A DNA stretch of 64,000 nucleotides. Origin: Clostridia bacterium. GTDB taxonomy: Bacteria; Bacillota; Clostridia; Oscillospirales; CAG-272. The DNA lies in assembly GCA_017473085.1 (NCBI GenBank), contig JAFUNF010000020.1, positions 21,523 through 85,522 of the forward strand, given 5' to 3'. The notes beneath the pieces were generated by a model that had not been told where the DNA came from, did not search any database, and saw only the letters and a program-made list of their open reading frames with translations. A program made the position numbers and the translations under genes. How positions within the stretch are numbered: the first letter of the stretch is position 1; every line of letters begins with the position of its first letter. Below, piece by piece: positions 386-30,737 of the stretch.

Positions 386-3124
386 TTAAACTATTATTGT
401 TGCAGCACTTCCGCCGTGCTTAGATTTTTTAACAATAATCTGCTTGTCAATTCTTGCCTTTAGCTCGCTAACGTGGGAAATAATTCCAACTAAGCGATTG
501 CCGTCCGACAAATTAATAAGTGCCTTTATAGCTTGATTTAAGGACTCCTCGTCAAGCGAGCCAAAGCCCTCGTCAACAAACATAGTGTCAAGCTTAATTC
601 CACCTGCGCTGGATTGTACCTCGTCAGAAAGTCCAAGAGCTAAGCAAAGCGATGCCTTAAAGGATTCTCCACCCGATAAGGTTTTTACACTTCTTTCGCT
701 TCCATTACTATGGTCAATTATATCGAGCTCAAGTCCTACCTGTCTTGCCTTACTATTATCAACTCGTCTCTTAAGCTCGTACAAGCCATCAGTCATTGCA
801 AGCAAGCGACGGTTAGCACGAATAATAATTCTATCGAAATAATTCATTTGAATATAGGTTTCAAGAGCAAGCTTTTCCTTACCTGTTAAATCTCCCTTTG
901 CCGTATCTGACAGGGACTTAACCATCATAAGCTCCTTTTCCTTTTTTTCGATACTCTGTGCCACTTTTTCAATATTTTCAAGGGTTTGAGTATTTGAAAT
1001 AAGCCTTGCATTTACTTCCTTTTCTTGCTTATCAAGGACTCCTTCCTCTTCCTTTAGTCCTTCGATTGTTTCACGACTATCATCAAGGTTAACACCCTCA
1101 TCATCACCATTCAAAAGGCTTTCAAGCTGTTCAATCTTACCCTTTAGCTGTACAGTAGCTTCCCTTCTCTTGTTGTAGCTGTCTTCCTTTGCCTTGTAGT
1201 CGCTATCTATTTCTATTATTTTTTGACTAATGTCCTTAAGTAGCTGAGATACCTCGTTTTGGTCCTTGCTTGTCAATTCCTTTTCAATCTCGACTAGCTT
1301 ATTTTCTCCATCCCTTTTACTGCTTTTGCCTGTTTCTAGCTTAACAAGTAATTCCTTTGCCTCGTTTTCAAGGAAGGTGATTTGCTTTTCAAGTGTAGGA
1401 ATATTTTTTTCAAGTTCTTCTTTTCTGTTAATTTTTCCATCGACCAGCTTTATTTCAAGGTCAATTTTTGAAATTTGCTCAGCGGTACTAGTCTTAGACA
1501 AATCAAGGCTCTTGTCAAAGGCTTTCATTTCCTTTTCAAGTGTAGCGTTTTTTTCCTCAAGCTTTGCCTTAATGCCTGAGCATTCCTCGCTTTTTTGCTT
1601 TGTCTTTTCTTGGCTAATTTGCCAAAGCTCTCTTTGATTATTTATCTCGGTCTCACTAGGTGGATTTGTAGAAAGGTTAGCAAGCTTAGGGTGTGAAATT
1701 GAGCCACAAACTGGACACTCCTGCCCACTTTTTAGCTCCTTTGCCAAAAGTCCTGCCTGTGCATCAAGAAATGCTCTATTCATTTTAAGATAGGTTTCTA
1801 CTGCCTCGTCCTCTAGGACCTTTAGCACCTCATACTCTGCTTGCTTGTACTCAAGTGTCTTTTTCAAGTTCTCGATTTCCTCTTTGTCCTTTAGCAATGC
1901 ATTAATTTTTTCTAAGGACCTTTCCTCGTCCCTTTTCCTTGCTAAAAGCTGTTGCTTTTCAGCAAGCGCACCCTCAAGGGATTTACTTTCGTCCTTAGCC
2001 TTATTATAGCTATCCTTAGCACACTTAATCTCGATTTCAAGCTCCGATTGCCTTTTACTATTTTTTTCTATTTCAAGGTTAAATGTATCTATTTGTCCCT
2101 TTATAGCTACTCGACTCTCGTGCTTTTTTAGCTCGTTTCTTAGTTGCTCAGCCTTTACGTTAAGGTCAGGGATAGTATCCTTGTCCACCCTTGCAAGCTT
2201 GTAGATTTTTTCTAACTCGCAAAGCTTGTTTTCTTCAATAGGCAAATCTTTTTTAAATTGCTCAAGGCTAGCCCTTGCTTTTTCCTTTTCAAGTATTTTT
2301 CCATAAAGCTCGTTTGCCCTTGCAAATCTTTTGGCTACCTCGTTTTTCTTTGCCTTTAGCTCGCTTTCCTTTTCCTTGTCCTGTGCAATAATTTTCTTAA
2401 GTAATGCCAAAACGTCATCGGTTAGCATTTCCTTATTTTTAGCAAGGACTGATAAGGGGTAAAGCTTACTATCTAGGTCACAGCTAATACCACTTATGTA
2501 TTGCTCGATACTTTGTCTCGCACCCTTACAGCCACTTTCAAGCTCACTTGTCATTTGGCTAAGCTCCTTTTGAAGTGCCTCGTATGGCTCGGTTTTAAAG
2601 ATTTTACGGAAGATAGCGCGTCTTTCATCAGTTGATGCTAAAAGTAGCTTTAAAAAGTCCCCCTGTGCAATCATTGCAATTTGCAAAAATTGATTTCTGT
2701 TAATACCAATTATTTCAATTATTTTTTCATCAACCTGCTTTTGCACAGATATTATGCTTCCATCAGGCAAGTAAAGAGTAGCAGAGGGCTTTTCCTTAGT
2801 TGTTCCCCCACCCTTTTTTGCAGGACGCTCATACTCAGGATTTCTTTTTACTGTGTAGGTTTTTTCTCTGTTTACAAAGGTCAATTCAACGTAGGTTGGA
2901 GTTTCAAGGTCTGCATATTTCGACCTTAGCATTGAGCTTGCACGATTATTGCCACTTGCCTCGCCATATAGCGCATATACAATTGCATCAAAAATTGTAG
3001 TTTTGCCTGCCCCTGTGTCGCCAGTTATCAAATACAAGCCGTTATTTCCTAAGGCATCAAGGTCAAGAATTTGTTCCTTAGCGTAAGGACCAAAGGCACT
3101 CATTTTTATCTCTAGTGGTCTCAC
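386..3124 (-). CDS. sbcC: SbcC/Rad50-family DNA repair ATPase (exonuclease SbcCD subunit C)
   Basis: N-terminal Walker A GDTGAGKTT, very long coiled coil with a central CPVCG zinc hook, C-terminal LSGGE signature and Walker B MFVDEGFGSLD. The likely start is the GTG at 3122-3124 (VRPLEIKMSAFGPY), which overlaps the sbcD TGA stop as GTGA. The track ORF extends to 3139. Confidence 0.9.
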   Translation of the reverse strand: MRPLEIKMSAFGPYAKEQILDLDALGNNGLYLITGDTGAGKTTIFDAIVYALYGEASGNNRASSMLRSKYADLETPTYVELTFVNREKTYTVKRNPEYERPAKKGGGTTKEKPSATLYLPDGSIISVQKQVDEKIIEIIGINRNQFLQIAMIAQGDFLKLLLASTDERRAIFRKIFKTEPYEALQKELSQMTSELESGCKGARQSIEQYISGISCDLDSKLYPLSVLAKNKEMLTDDVLALLKKIIAQDKEKESELKAKKNEVAKRFARANELYGKILEKEKARASLEQFKKDLPIEENKLCELEKIYKLARVDKDTIPDLNVKAEQLRNELKKHESRVAIKGQIDTFNLEIEKNSKRQSELEIEIKCAKDSYNKAKDESKSLEGALAEKQQLLARKRDEERSLEKINALLKDKEEIENLKKTLEYKQAEYEVLKVLEDEAVETYLKMNRAFLDAQAGLLAKELKSGQECPVCGSISHPKLANLSTNPPSETEINNQRELWQISQEKTKQKSEECSGIKAKLEEKNATLEKEMKAFDKSLDLSKTSTAEQISKIDLEIKLVDGKINRKEELEKNIPTLEKQITFLENEAKELLVKLETGKSSKRDGENKLVEIEKELTSKDQNEVSQLLKDISQKIIEIDSDYKAKEDSYNKRREATVQLKGKIEQLESLLNGDDEGVNLDDSRETIEGLKEEEGVLDKQEKEVNARLISNTQTLENIEKVAQSIEKKEKELMMVKSLSDTAKGDLTGKEKLALETYIQMNYFDRIIIRANRRLLAMTDGLYELKRRVDNSKARQVGLELDIIDHSNGSERSVKTLSGGESFKASLCLALGLSDEVQSSAGGIKLDTMFVDEGFGSLDEESLNQAIKALINLSDGNRLVGIISHVSELKARIDKQIIVKKSKHGGSAATIIV

Positions 3125-4257
3125 TCTTCTCCCTCCCAAATTTTCTTAATCAGACTTGTAACAAGGCTTTTTTGCTCATCTGTCATTCCCTTATTGTTTT
3201 GACGAACGTAAAGCTCCTCAAATAGCTCAAGTGGTGTCTTGTCCTCAACGCAGGAGGCACTATCAATGTCAAGATTTTTCCTTGTTCTTGTGTTGTCGTA
3301 GTCTAACTTCATTAGATTTTTGTATATTACACGAAGCTTGCCTATTGCATCAGGCACGTCCTGTTCATCAGTAAGAGTTATGTGGACGTAGTCCGTTTGA
3401 TAGGTAGTGCCCTTGTAAAAATCTGTCCTTGTAAGGTCGTTATAAGTACCCTTTAATTCAGCCATATCGTGAAGTGGTACAAGTGGCTCTGTAATAATTT
3501 CCATCTCTCCCTTCTTGCCAAGGTCAATAATAGTTACGGATTTCTTGTCCTTAGCCTCGGAAAAGGAATACTTTAAGGGTGTCCCACAATATCTGATTTT
3601 ATCTATGCCACAGCTCTGTGGACGATGAAGATGCCCTAAGGCAACATAATCAAAATCCATAAGCACAGATGCATCTATATTATCAGTACCACCTATGCTA
3701 ACCTCCTCAGACTCAGACCTTTCTGCACCTGTTACAAGCTGATGGGAAACAAGAATATTTCTTTTTGTATTGTCGATTCCCATTTCATCAACTACATACC
3801 TTACAGCATCGGTATAGGTGGAAATTTCCTCCTCGCTTTCTCTTTTAACCATAATAGGCTTAATAAAGGGTAAAAGGTATATATTGACCTCGCCATGCTC
3901 GTCCTTTAGTGTAAAGGGCTTGATTTTTTCCTTATATGCAGGAGAAATATGTATGCCACTTTTATCAATCAAGCGAGAGGCAAAGGCAAGCCTTTCCTGT
4001 GAGTCGTGATTACCACCTATTATAAACACCTCTAAATTTCTGTTAGCAAGCTCCACTAAAAAGCTATCAAGCACCACGGTTGCCTCAGCCGATGGTACTG
4101 TTTTATCGTACACGTCCCCTGCGATTAACACTCCATCTGGGGAATGCTTATCAATTATTCTTAGAATTTGCTCTAATATGTATTTTTGGTCCTCAAGCAT
4201 CGAAAAATCGTTTACTCTTTTTCCTATATGTAGGTCAGATAAGTGAATTAGTCTCAT
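3121..4257 (-). CDS. sbcD: SbcD/Mre11-family nuclease (exonuclease SbcCD subunit D)
   Basis: 378 aa with calcineurin-like phosphoesterase motifs: MRLIHLSDLHIG, IAGDVYD, IIGGNHD, ALGHLH. It lies directly upstream of sbcC and is coupled to it. Confidence 0.92.
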   Translation of the reverse strand: MRLIHLSDLHIGKRVNDFSMLEDQKYILEQILRIIDKHSPDGVLIAGDVYDKTVPSAEATVVLDSFLVELANRNLEVFIIGGNHDSQERLAFASRLIDKSGIHISPAYKEKIKPFTLKDEHGEVNIYLLPFIKPIMVKRESEEEISTYTDAVRYVVDEMGIDNTKRNILVSHQLVTGAERSESEEVSIGGTDNIDASVLMDFDYVALGHLHRPQSCGIDKIRYCGTPLKYSFSEAKDKKSVTIIDLGKKGEMEIITEPLVPLHDMAELKGTYNDLTRTDFYKGTTYQTDYVHITLTDEQDVPDAIGKLRVIYKNLMKLDYDNTRTRKNLDIDSASCVEDKTPLELFEELYVRQNNKGMTDEQKSLVTSLIKKIWEGEE

Positions 4258-4366
4258 AGTCCTCTCCTTTTTTGGTCTTTATATTATTTTAGTATAAAAG
4301 GTATTATTTTTCAATATAATTTGCTTTTTTTAATCTTATATGCTAAAATATTTTTGAGGTGATATT

Positions 4367-4963
4367 ATGATAAAATGCTTTAGTGGTTATTTAAACTCAA
4401 ACGTATACTTGGTTTACGATAAGGGCGAGGGTATGATAATCGACTGTGGCTGTCCTGTAAACGAAATACAAGCAACTGTAAACAGGCTAAAAATTGAGGT
4501 AAAATACATCGTTCTTTCCCACGGACACTATGACCACGTTTGCTATATTAACGAGTATATAAATGCATTTCCAAACGCCACGCTATTTTGTCACACATAC
4601 GAGCTTAAGGTTTTAAGAGATATGGAGGCTAACGTTTCAGTGCTTTTTGGCGACCCCCGTGTCTATAATCAGGAGTTTTCCTTGCTTAACGAGGGCGATA
4701 CCTTAAGTGTTGGCGAGCTTAAATTTTCAATTCTTTTAACACCAGGGCACACTCCTGGCTCAATTTGTCTTTTGTGCGAGGACAAAAAAATCCTTTTCAC
4801 AGGAGACGTGCTATTCAAGGACGGTTGGGGACGTACCGATTTTAAATATGGCGATTACGAAAAAATGGGCTTGTCCCTTAAACGCCTTATGGGTCTTGAC
4901 CCTGAAATTGTTTTCTATTCAGGTCACGGTCCTGAATCTAAAATTAAATACGAAATATATTAA
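4367..4963 (+). CDS. MBL-fold metallo-hydrolase (glyoxalase II-like)
   Basis: 198 aa with an HGHYDH (HxHxDH) motif and TPGHTPGS. GAGGTG RBS 6 nt upstream of the ATG. Confidence 0.85.
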   Translation: MIKCFSGYLNSNVYLVYDKGEGMIIDCGCPVNEIQATVNRLKIEVKYIVLSHGHYDHVCYINEYINAFPNATLFCHTYELKVLRDMEANVSVLFGDPRVYNQEFSLLNEGDTLSVGELKFSILLTPGHTPGSICLLCEDKKILFTGDVLFKDGWGRTDFKYGDYEKMGLSLKRLMGLDPEIVFYSGHGPESKIKYEIY

Positions 4964-4990
4964 AAAAAGGTCGCGTGTGCGACCTTTTTA
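4964..4990. terminator. Bidirectional intrinsic terminator
   Basis: aaaaaaaGGTCGCgtgtGCGACCttttt lies between convergent genes. Confidence 0.7.
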
Positions 4991-5575
4991 TATACCTAAT
5001 AAGCCTGTTACAAAAATTTCAATTCCTATAAGAATAAGTATTACTCCACCTATTATAGTTGCCTTGCCTGATAGCTTAGTACCGAAGATTTTACCAAGGA
5101 ATAAGCCAAGCATACAAATAATAAAGGTAACTAAGCTAATTATAAGCACGGAAGCGAGTGCCATCTGCCAAGGATGCTCTGCTATTGTAAAGCCTACCGA
5201 CAAGGCATCAATTGAGGTTGCAATTCCTTGCAAAAGCAAGCCACCCATTCCTAATTTAACAGGCTCACATTCCTCCTTGTGCTTAATACCATCGTATAGC
5301 ATTTTGCCACCAATAATACAAAGCAGTATCAGTGCAATCCAAGGAATGAATTTTTCAAGCACCTGAAAATATTGAAGTACAGTGTGCACACAAACCCAAC
5401 CAATCATTGGCATAAGCCCTTGAAAAAATGCAAACACTCCTGCTATTCCGACCATTTTTCGATTTTTCATATTCTTTTCATTTAGTCCATTTGCCAGTGA
5501 CACAGAAAAGGCATCCATTGCTAAGCCACAGCCTAACAAAATGCTTTCCAAAAAGAACATAAAGCTCCAGTCCAT
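4988..5575 (-). CDS. mntP: Manganese efflux pump MntP family
   Basis: 195 aa and about 6 TM segments. N-terminal LLGCGLAMDAFSVSLANGL and a second half with IDALSVGF are typical of the MntP/YebN family. Confidence 0.85.
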   Translation of the reverse strand: MDWSFMFFLESILLGCGLAMDAFSVSLANGLNEKNMKNRKMVGIAGVFAFFQGLMPMIGWVCVHTVLQYFQVLEKFIPWIALILLCIIGGKMLYDGIKHKEECEPVKLGMGGLLLQGIATSIDALSVGFTIAEHPWQMALASVLIISLVTFIICMLGLFLGKIFGTKLSGKATIIGGVILILIGIEIFVTGLLGI

Positions 5576-28932: not shown

Positions 28933-29468
28933 TTTTCCTCTCCTGTTACTCGTCTTTTATTTATTAGATGCATAATTAATGGAATTAAAACAAGCTGTAA
29001 GATTATGCCAGGGATTGCATCAACCACACCCGACATAAAAAGTGCGTACAGAGTTATACTCTGTCCTGCCACACCTAAAAGAATTGCTTTTGCAATTCCC
29101 CAAGCTACCCTGCCTGCTATCATTGATATAACAAGAGATAGATAAAGGTAGCCAATATGCTTTTTTCTTGCCTTAATATATAGTAAGCCAATAACTAAGC
29201 CATAGGTGGCAAGCTCAATCGCCATCCACACTGCATTGGGATAAAGGGGTGGCATACCAAAAATAAGGGAGCGCAAAAATGGTAAGGTAGCCCCCACCAC
29301 AAGCCCATACCTGTAGCCACAAATAAGACCGCATAGCATAACTGCTAAGTGCATTGGCAAAAGCGAATCACCGATTTCCTTAATCTGCCCAGTCAAAAGA
29401 GGCAAAACCATACCTAACGCCAAAAACAACCCAGCCAAAACAAGATTTTTTATATCTTTTCTTTTCAT
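28929..29468 (-). CDS. ECF-transporter S (substrate-capture) component-like membrane protein
   Basis: About 6 TM segments (MKRKDIKNLVLAGLFLALGMVLP...). I prefer the start at 29468, because the track start at 29525 lies inside the predicted promoter. Its stop overlaps the larA start as ATGA. Confidence 0.65.
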   Translation of the reverse strand: MKRKDIKNLVLAGLFLALGMVLPLLTGQIKEIGDSLLPMHLAVMLCGLICGYRYGLVVGATLPFLRSLIFGMPPLYPNAVWMAIELATYGLVIGLLYIKARKKHIGYLYLSLVISMIAGRVAWGIAKAILLGVAGQSITLYALFMSGVVDAIPGIILQLVLIPLIMHLINKRRVTGEEK

Positions 29469-29496
29469 TTCTGCCCCTTTCTTCCTTAATATATTT

Positions 29497-29525
29497 ATTA
29501 TAGCATTTATTGACGCTAAGTGCAA
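29497..29525 (-). promoter_or_regulatory. Candidate promoter of the ECF-S/larA/HIT operon
   Basis: On the minus strand: TTGCAC, 17 nt, TATAAT. Confidence 0.45.
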
Positions 29526-29543
29526 TATGAAAATAAAGCGAAA

Positions 29544-30112
29544 AACAAAGCAAGGAGAGTGAGGACTTGACTTTATTCGAGTCCTTAATCGACTATGCGA
29601 CTTTGCGTGGCACAGAACACGGGCTTTGTCCTTTAGGGCAAGGCGAAAGCCACAAGCTTTAGGCTTGTGGCTTCCTTATAGACGAACTAAGTCTATAAGC
29701 TGAACGCAAGCCGAAAACAATTGGGTATTGTTTTCGGTGCAGTGTTTCAAACAAAGCAAGGAGAGTGAGGACTTGACTTTATTCAAGTCCTTAATCGACT
29801 ATGCGACTTTGCGTGGTACAGAACACGGGCTTTGTCCTTTAGGGCAAAGCGAAAGCCACAAGCTTTAGGCTTGTGGCTTCCTTATAGACGAACTAAGTCT
29901 GTAAGCTGAACGCAAGCCGAAAACAATTGGGTATTGTTTTCGGTGCAGTGTTTCAAACAAAGCAAGGAGAGTGAGGACTTGACTTTATTCGAGTCCTTAA
30001 TCGACTATGCGACTTTGCGTGGCACAGAACACGGGCTTTGTCCTTTAGGGCAAAGCGAAAGCCACAAGCTTTAGGCTTGTGGCTTCCTTATAGACGAACT
30101 AAGTCTATAAGC
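29544..30112. repeat. Tandem array, 2.75 copies of a 206-bp unit, abutting and overlapping the rnpB 3' end
   Basis: The motif CAAAGCAAGGAGAGTGAGG recurs at 29546, 29752 and 29958 (period 206). The copies differ by only a handful of substitutions. The unit shares its last ~20 nt with the 3' end of rnpB. Confidence 0.95.
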
Positions 30113-30457
30113 CGTGTTCTGTTGAAGATGGTCATCTATCTTTGCCTTGTGTCGCCACAAGGCTCCGCAAAATTGCGTGCCACCCAAGAGAATAGCAAAG
30201 CTTTATCGGGCAAATAAAAATCCTCTTATGCGGTGTTGCTTCGGATAGGGTTTACACCTACTCTATGTTACCATAGAATATCGTGAGCTCTTACCTCACG
30301 TTTTCATCCTTACCTAAAAAGGCGGTAATTTTCTGTTGCACTTTCCCTAAGGTCACCCTCGGCTGACGTTATCAGTTATCCTGCCCTATGAAGCACGGAC
30401 TTTCCTCACACTACTACCTTTCGGCGTGATAGTGCGCGACCATCCAACTTAGTTCCC
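30092..30457 (-). ncRNA. rnpB: RNase P RNA
   Basis: The minus strand carries the universal blocks GAGGAAAGTCCGTGC, GGGAAAGTGCAACAGAAA, GTGAGGTAAGAGCTCACG, GTAAACCC, AGATAGATGACCATC and ACAGAACACGGCTTAT. P1 pairs GAACTAAGT (5') with ACTTAGTTC (3'). A consensus promoter lies just upstream. Ends are +/- a few nt. Confidence 0.93.
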
Positions 30458-30461
30458 TTGT

Positions 30462-30490
30462 ATTATAATAAATTTTTTCCACTTTGTCAA
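30462..30490 (-). promoter_or_regulatory. rnpB promoter
   Basis: A perfect TTGACA, 17 nt, TATAAT on the minus strand, about 6 nt upstream of the predicted RNA 5' end. Confidence 0.7.
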
Positions 30491-30551: not shown

Positions 30552-30737
30552 ATGGACAATAATTATGAAAAAATGTGCGTACCACTTCAAATGGCACTTG
30601 CTCACAACGAAAGTGCCTTTAGAAGCTTTTTAAATATGGATATTCCCACACAAAACGAATTTATACACAAGGCAAATGCCACAGGAAGTGTGGCAGAAAT
30701 TAACTCTTTAGTAAATGAATTGGCAAAAAAGGAGTGA
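30552..30737 (+). CDS. Small hypothetical protein (61 aa)
   Basis: ATG at 30552 with an AAAGGAG RBS (the track ORF starts earlier, at a non-ATG codon at 30495). Helical; no family recognised. Confidence 0.45.
   Translation: MDNNYEKMCVPLQMALAHNESAFRSFLNMDIPTQNEFIHKANATGSVAEINSLVNELAKKE

Follow-up and report, generated by a model that had tools for sequence, protein, structure and literature searches.

Repeats in the 3' flank of the RNase P RNA gene (rnpB) of Escherichia coli K-12 were reportedly described by Reed and Altman in PNAS in 1983. The array was re-derived here as 3.5 copies of a 113-bp unit (positions 1847-2239 of the fetched locus L186, i.e., 3269846-3270238 of MG1655, NC_000913). 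Its first unit overlaps the last ~23 nt of rnpB, and every unit carries the gene tail with a terminator hairpin as well as a copy of the part of rnpB that directly precedes the repeat boundary, in which the core of the conserved CR-V block is disrupted. The E. coli units are 'dead' copies of the rnpB 3' part, in which ATGACTGTCCACGAC and CGGCTTATCGGTCAG... are retained and the CR-V core AGAACC is replaced by 18 nt. In this work we analyzed a stretch of 64,000 nucleotides (hereafter the window) from the metagenome-assembled genome (MAG) of a Clostridia bacterium (Oscillospirales, CAG-272; contig JAFUNF010000020.1, positions 21,523 to 85,522), in which a tandem array is likewise fused to the 3' end of rnpB. 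With a probability of roughly 0.55, we interpret this array as a stack of ~206-bp non-coding insertion cassettes of the kind that restores the gene end it enters, ancient in origin and locally amplified, and not as a working extension of the RNase P RNA.

The second point of reference is provided by elements mobilized by tyrosine integrases, which leave attL/attR duplications in the 3' ends of tRNA, tmRNA and conserved genes such as rpsI, and whose integrase-less derivatives are the cis-mobilisable elements (CIMEs) of streptococci. The third comprises short extragenic sequences of the REP/BIME/REPIN type with their RAYT transposases and the IS200/IS605-related PATEs.

The analysis with Tandem Repeats Finder indicated that positions 29543-30112 form a single tandem array with a period of 206, 2.8 copies, 98% matches and 0 indels. 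The components of the gene and of the array are as follows.

30462..30490, minus strand: rnpB promoter TTGACA-17-TATAAT, agreeing with the consensus at 12/12 positions (promoter scan).
30092..30455, minus strand: rnpB, RNase P RNA class A (Rfam RF00010, 247.5 bits against a gathering score of 100, E = 2.2e-79, model positions 1-367, i.e., the full model).
30111..30122, minus strand: CR-V block ACAGAACACGGC, the universally conserved 3' strand of P4 within rnpB; the repeat boundary falls at 30112/30113.
29907..30112, minus strand: cassette unit 1, 206 bp, its first 21 nt being the true rnpB end (repeat analysis and sequence).
29701..29906, minus strand: cassette unit 2, 206 bp, differing from unit 1 at unit positions 6, 90 and 122.
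29543..29700, minus strand: cassette unit 3, cut to 158 bp and devoid of the apical F hairpin, equal to unit 1 with one private change.
30086-30112, 29880-29906 and 29674-29700, minus strand: X, the 27-nt rnpB tail GCTTAYAGACTTAGTTCGTCTATAAGG, a direct repeat bounding each cassette (exact coordinates).
30061-30083, 29855-29877 and 29649-29671, minus strand: terminator-type hairpin GCCACAAGC-CTAAA-GCTTGTGGC, with a weak U-tract after it.
30024-30036, 29818-29830 and 29612-29624, minus strand: X', a 13-nt inverted copy of the CR-V block, GCCCGTGTTCTGT, i.e., its reverse complement (exact coordinates).
29906..30023, plus strand: structured module copy 1, four helices, the folded strand being antisense to rnpB (covariance model R1, 100.9 bits).
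29700..29817, plus strand: structured module copy 2 (R1, 103.2 bits).
29543..29611, plus strand: structured module copy 3, the 3' half alone, without the apical hairpin (R1, partial match, 42 bits).

Read on the rnpB strand, each unit is thus composed of X, the terminator hairpin, a weak U-tract, a spacer, X', and three segments, D (CACGCAAAGTCGCATAGTCGATT), E (the GGACTYGA hairpin, present in three copies, followed by CACTCTCCTTGCTTTGTTT) and F (the hairpin CCGAAAACAA-TACCCAA-TTGTTTTCGG, the CCGAAAACAA hairpin being present in two copies). The array shares the last 21 nt of rnpB with the gene, and the gene and repeat copies part at 30113, inside the ACAGAACACGGC block. The RF00010 match is confined to the gene itself, since the repeat units hold merely those 21 nt and the inverted 13-mer. 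A single unit is predicted to fold with -75.2 kcal/mol (z = -7.3 against shuffles). The first hairpin has a 9-pair stem followed in this genome by the tail TTTCGCTTTG, and the terminator scan made no call here; its counterparts in relatives have tails of the type TTTTTC(T)TTT, which in most of them constitute a good U-run. An earlier note on this DNA, made from the sequence alone, had described a near-identical 206-bp unit repeated 2.75 times, with its boundary inside rnpB, units starting with the end of the gene, divergence at 30113, and three hairpins plus an inverted CR-V segment in each unit. All of this was confirmed, with the inverted segment measuring 13 nt.

The similarity to the E. 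coli array is one of analogous architecture, as no resemblance in sequence or model was found (R1 had no match in L186). Moreover, the copy of the upstream segment is direct in E. coli but inverted here, and the E. coli unit has no counterpart of the 120-nt module. To our knowledge, the 113-bp unit has not been reported at tRNA genes.

As the source genome is a MAG of 33 contigs, 87% complete, it had to be considered that the array was created by the assembler and that only a single unit exists. Apart from the nature of the genome, such an artefact might be suspected because a second assembly, from the same population or a nearly identical one, is interrupted at either edge of the array. In this independent ENA assembly (ERZ28654512), two contigs agree with the window at every position of the stretches that were fetched (for the first, the comparison covered 3169 nt). 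Both end 54 nt inside the array, one from either side, at 29597 and 30058. This is how short-read (de Bruijn) assemblers behave at a true repeat, and we therefore count the array as genuine. It should also be stressed that the three units differ by distinct substitutions, which gives unique junctions, and that at least two units occur in independent MAGs of other species as well; an artefact is thus very improbable. Scans of metagenomes, made as a read-level check, gave no match, and the copy number of 2.75 is a lower bound. The repeat behind rnpB is real and comprises at least 2.75 stacked copies.

The D-E-F segment (~116 nt, within a module of ~120 nt) was also found at other loci of related bacteria by BLAST and nhmmer, which enabled an analysis of its folding. 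Its fold comprises four helices with 28 pairs. Among 53 non-redundant copies, 91.9% of cells are paired, compared with 73.1% in column shuffles and 36-49% in slid-partner controls; the observed value was reached by 0/500 shuffles, and compensatory changes occur in 22 of the 28 pairs. On the strand antisense to rnpB, a single position accounts for 15 G-U pairs (its complement would have C.A mismatches there), and an internal loop of tandem G.A/A.G pairs (GGAG opposite CGAC) is conserved. The alifold energy of this strand is -24.7 kcal/mol, versus -16.8 kcal/mol for the other strand. Judged by these features, the folding strand of the module is the one antisense to rnpB.

A search of the region 29400-30200 against Rfam 15 (both strands, E up to 10) gave chance-level matches only, the best reaching 20.6 bits against a gathering score of 100, and the related loci matched solely tRNA and 5S families. 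The covariance search of the unit proposed in the earlier note thus assigned it to no family, and a known RNA family was rejected for either strand. The sequence of the apical hairpin also had no match in the literature text searched. Taken together, comparative evidence points to a conserved structured element of a family that is not specific to rnpB and is apparently undescribed. Two further candidates were discarded. A small open reading frame (ORF) in the module (AAGGAG followed by TTG, with ...IDYATL kept in two copies) has an unconserved start codon, and the indels of the variable hairpin are not multiples of three. A hammerhead-like CUGAUGA...GAAA is present in a subset of copies only, is a by-product of the boundary sequence and had no Rfam hit.

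Within the genus, rnpB was detected in 40/41 genomes. The earlier note listed the lack of any copy in relatives among the conditions that would favor a neutral recent duplication; in the fetched set, a second copy of the rnpB tail was found ~200-325 nt downstream of the gene in nine other species. In most of these it matches the species' own rnpB tail, i.e., it co-varies with it. Many species of the genus have rnpB without a cassette, and across species the copy number ranges from 1 to about 2.75. The alignment of 15 species revealed that the terminator-hairpin loop GCCTAAAGC is invariant, with a covarying stem, that the X' core CCGTGTTCT is likewise invariant next to a hypervariable spacer, and that the D-E-F segments are conserved. 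On this comparison, X' and the terminator loop are under constraint and are not recent copies, and the unit is evidently old, common to at least 15 species and structurally constrained.

In the maximum-likelihood tree, modules group by host gene and not by genome. The rnpB-linked modules form one clade (support 99/98) with representatives of at least 11 species, and the proximal and distal units of two species fall into separate sub-clades shared between species. Such grouping indicates old, locus-bound lineages with the fold retained. At the rnpB locus of genome G003, the proximal tail and terminator are unlike those of its close relative G052, whereas the distal tail and terminator are of the G052 type, which points to a replacement of the gene end by incoming DNA, possibly a cassette.

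The module is not restricted to rnpB. In related gut Clostridia of the Oscillospirales type it adjoins tRNA-Pro(GGG), tRNA-Met, tRNA-Asn (after 5S rRNA) and rpsI, downstream of the gene, and each such locus, with single or tandem units, contains a copy of the host-gene end, a terminator, an inverted piece from just upstream of the copied part, and the module. The gene ends are thus copied in sense and antisense also at these dispersed loci. The strand of the module is antisense to the host gene at rnpB, rpsI and tRNA-Asn, and sense at tRNA-Pro and tRNA-Met. Tandem module units are present downstream of rplM-rpsI in genomes G018, G020 and G012 (loci L066, positions 1100-1600, L056 and L060). 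These units start with the last ~20 nt of rpsI (..CCACAGTTCTCNAAGAGATAA; codons ...APQFSKR*) and its terminator, and the codons that immediately precede this part recur in each unit as an 11-nt inverted copy (CTGTGGAGCAC); the rpsI version of the terminator hairpin has one G-U pair compatible with the gene strand only. In the genome of the window, the R1 search found the module solely in the array.

At the tRNA-Leu/tRNA-Met locus of genome G005, 280 bp lie between two 21-bp direct repeats, CAAATCCCACCTCCGCACCCA, covering the T-loop to the 3' end of the tRNA. In G009 the tRNA-Met site is empty, and the flank following its tRNA aligns (128/146) with the G005 flank after the distal repeat, not with that after the gene. 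The intact tRNA-Met gene of G005 is followed by a different terminator, which belongs to the insert. Such a configuration is the classical mark of an element that integrates site-specifically into a gene 3' end and restores that end. A direct repeat of the gene 3' end flanks the insert at rnpB (27 nt) as well as at this tRNA-Met locus. All this resembles the attL/attR elements and CIMEs, where the insert likewise lies between direct repeats of the gene 3' end and contributes the functional gene end, the original flank is found beyond the distal repeat (as at tRNA-Met), and tandem accretion takes place at the regenerated site; the kinds of targets are the same too, i.e., tRNA genes from the T-loop to the 3' end and the 3' end of rpsI. 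Unlike those elements, the short cassettes (206-323 bp) carry no integrase or ORF, no parent element was found for them, and two of their components, the covarying structured module and the inverted piece from the left side of the crossover, are not known as features of att sites.

Two other readings of the tRNA fragments were considered and rejected. A tRNA-like or tmRNA-like fold of the module with the tRNA fragment is contradicted by degenerate T-arm halves, and ARAGORN calls intact tRNAs only. An origin from cDNA of mature tRNA does not fit because the fragments copy the genomic flank (tRNA-Met ...CACCCA without CCA). In four loci (L057, L062, L064 and L065), the flanks of the module copies are tRNA-Pro-like but decayed, and any tRNA gene is far away; in the first of them (contig C4 of G020, 1200-5300), two module copies 1316 bp apart flank a 225-aa ORF without a Pfam domain.

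The apical hairpin is present in 36/50 genomes of the genus, in 1-8 copies per genome and with compensatory stem variants. Across the order, the distribution of the full module is patchy (8/201 genomes sampled). At 9/10 loci fetched from those genomes the module lies within about 250 nt of a tRNA gene: downstream on the same strand in seven cases, upstream on the same strand in one and on the opposite strand in one, with the last locus having no tRNA gene in the stretch fetched. The 21-nt hairpin core has exact matches in more than 119 contigs of species representatives. In Gastranaerophilales/Melainabacteria, Muribaculaceae and unnamed rumen MAGs (seven loci), the hairpin is part of a 45-nt motif, CCTCTCG-[AAAACAATACTCAATTGTTTT]-CTCGGCAGAGT. 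Its distance from the tRNA genes, which represent at least 13 isoacceptors, is 33-220 nt in Gastranaerophilales/Melainabacteria and Muribaculaceae, where it is mostly upstream. Units with this motif are tandem, 100-230 nt long, and repeat the promoter-like region upstream of the tRNA gene together with the first 12-17 nt of the tRNA, after which the hairpin stands in place of the D-loop and is followed by tRNA positions ~17/23-37. The hairpin-core matches in Flavobacteriaceae and Anaerobiospirillum (five loci) are part of the coding sequence of a conserved polA-like region and have no relation to the element.

According to the interpretation that we prefer, a cassette would have entered rnpB at its 3' end prior to the divergence of the related species of the genus, presumably by the same site-specific, att-like route as at tRNA-Met and with the enzyme supplied in trans. 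Each cassette would bring a copy of the rnpB tail with a terminator hairpin, leaving the gene intact, and in addition the ~120-nt four-helix module and, in inverted form, a short piece of what immediately precedes the insertion point. Arrays could arise from repeated integration at the regenerated site or from unequal crossing-over between units. In the window, the extra units would result from unequal recombination or slippage between the 27-nt (or longer) repeats, and the 1-2-1' substitution pattern of the units favors a recent local duplication. The practical effect on rnpB would be a series of terminators, with the mature ribozyme unchanged.

A number of observations speak against this interpretation. 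Modules cluster by host gene and keep their fold among orthologues, a pattern that suits a function under selection no less than a selfish element, and a passive scar does not explain the invariance of both the terminator loop and the inverted CR-V piece across 15 species. Distally, the array ends in a truncated unit and not in a clean copy of the tail with native sequence behind it. No relative with an empty rnpB site and a matching distal flank was found, so that insertion at rnpB rests on the analogy with tRNA-Met. The search for a mover was equally negative. The units are ORF-free, and no recombinase or ORF was found within or beside the cassettes. Clustering of the ORFs of 134 loci showed no enriched recombinase or nuclease, the shared clusters being house-keeping neighbors (e.g., rpsI and rplM), and the ORFs between the two module copies in G020 have no Pfam domain. 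Phage or plasmid origin was rejected, as the element had no match among IMG/VR viral contigs, INPHARED phages and PLSDB plasmids, and thus no known vehicle. An IS110/IS1111 bridge (seek) RNA was dismissed as well, since a true PF01548 domain is present in 2/50 genomes of the genus only and the other hits are weak and lie inside ~1440-aa proteins. Mobilization by IS200/IS605 or RAYT transposases finds no correlate in the occurrence of Y1_Tnp (23/50 genomes, against 36/50 for the hairpin). Locus-bound lineages with a retained fold and no linked enzyme give substantial weight to a selected function of the module.

With regard to IS200-related sequences, five genomes (G005, G003, G013, G045 and G062) have 5-8 hairpins each and no Y1 transposase. 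In two species (locus L197 in contig C33 of G018 and L198 in contig C69 of G021), IS200-like elements (Y1 transposase, ~730 bp) lie 60-215 nt from a module in the same orientation, with the module outside the ends of the insertion sequence; such insertions may reflect a preference of these elements for hairpin-rich sites. With the REP/BIME/REPIN sequences and PATEs the module shares its extragenic location, hairpin formation and strand specificity, imperfect stems with G-T pairs and mismatches, and frequent occurrence at transcription-unit 3' ends and within tandem mosaics. It differs from them in having 1-8 copies per genome, in being bounded by long direct repeats of host genes, in not being tracked by a Y1 transposase, and in lying outside the ends of the two adjacent IS200-like elements.

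Among the other explanations, the one that deserves serious attention, while being the less probable account, is that the module is a functional non-coding RNA, or a folded signal in single-stranded DNA, kept by host selection and transcribed antisense to rnpB. The gene-end copies would then supply a terminator, or arms pairing with the RNA or DNA of the neighboring gene. The strong covariation and the strand bias of the G-U pairs are what such an RNA would be expected to show, and compensatory changes occur even among orthologous rnpB-linked copies (e.g., GGACTTGA/TCAAGTCC versus GGGCTTGA/TCAAGCCC). The low copy number, the descent tied to the host locus, the invariant terminator loop and inverted piece, and the position downstream of a tRNA gene on the same strand at 7/10 loci of other genera agree with it too. 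On the other hand, the promoter scan revealed no promoter-like site for the module strand in or beside the array, and none was seen by eye at the tRNA loci; the orientation toward the host gene is variable, the occurrence in the order is patchy, and an identical hairpin in different phyla speaks for horizontal spread rather than for an old host gene. Of the options offered by the earlier note, an independent structured RNA comes nearest to the evidence, in that the element is structured and conserved; its status as an RNA is putative. A more speculative variant, which we regard as doubtful, makes the module the scaffold, as folded RNA or single-stranded DNA, of a guide-armed mobile element. 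Its two arms, the inverted left-flank copy and the right-flank copy, would match opposite strands around the insertion point, direct insertion into the ends of strongly conserved genes, i.e., tRNA genes, rnpB and rpsI, and rebuild the end. The logic of targeting would be similar to that of bridge RNAs with a different enzyme, and the hairpin cassettes at tRNA genes in several phyla would do likewise.

The remaining two explanations concern rnpB alone, and both seem unlikely. If the transcript ran on into the array, the inverted piece could sequester the P4-forming CR-V strand, so that the precursor would be inactive or its folding or processing guided, as the earlier note had suggested. Structure prediction for the extended transcript bears out the pairing itself, with a CR-V:X' probability of about 1.0 and a predicted duplex of -21.1 kcal/mol versus -10.1 kcal/mol for P4, and X' is invariant in 15 species amid hypervariable flanks, while the weak U-tract in this genome might permit read-through. 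A device specific to RNase P is another matter: the good U-run after the hairpin in most relatives implies termination before X', the tail copy, terminator, inverted upstream piece and module occur also at rpsI and tRNA-Asn and thus belong to the cassette as such, it is the opposite strand that folds in the module, and many congeners have rnpB without a cassette. As for a neutral minisatellite, generated by slippage or unequal crossing-over of the rnpB terminator region with neither insertion nor function, the 98% identity of the units, the third being a near copy of the first, and the copy number varying between species are readily accounted for, and E. coli proves that such arrays arise at rnpB. 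That process does not explain a covarying module common to tRNA and rpsI loci and to other genera, the insertion signature at tRNA-Met, or elements invariant across 15 species. In this genome it is probably responsible for the last round of amplification only, and to that extent the corresponding proposal of the earlier note survives; the unit itself is older than this genome.

On the far side of the array, the promoter-like sequence of the next operon lies closer than the 19 bp given in the earlier note, the actual gap being 17 nt.

29497..29525, minus strand: promoter-like TTGCAC-17-TATAAT of the ECF-S / LarA / HIT operon, 17 nt beyond the array (read from the sequence).

On the other side of rnpB, divergent from it, a 61-aa ORF with a strong ribosome-binding site (30552-30737, plus strand) is identical in another assembly and has no Pfam hit on record.

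The tandem repeats at the end of rnpB in E. coli have been without an explanation for forty years, and the same arrangement is now found in a distant phylum. They appear to belong to a wider pattern, in which small ORF-less cassettes stand at the ends of the most conserved and most highly expressed genes and copy pieces of their host genes. For the annotation of gut MAGs, the element accounts for contig breaks and for pseudo-tRNA and pseudo-rnpB fragments. Its module combines very strong covariation with absence from Rfam. If this module is a cis-acting part of an unrecognized insertion system, it would point to a novel mode by which conserved genes are targeted; should it be a host RNA, it would constitute a new RNA family linked to the genes of stable RNAs.

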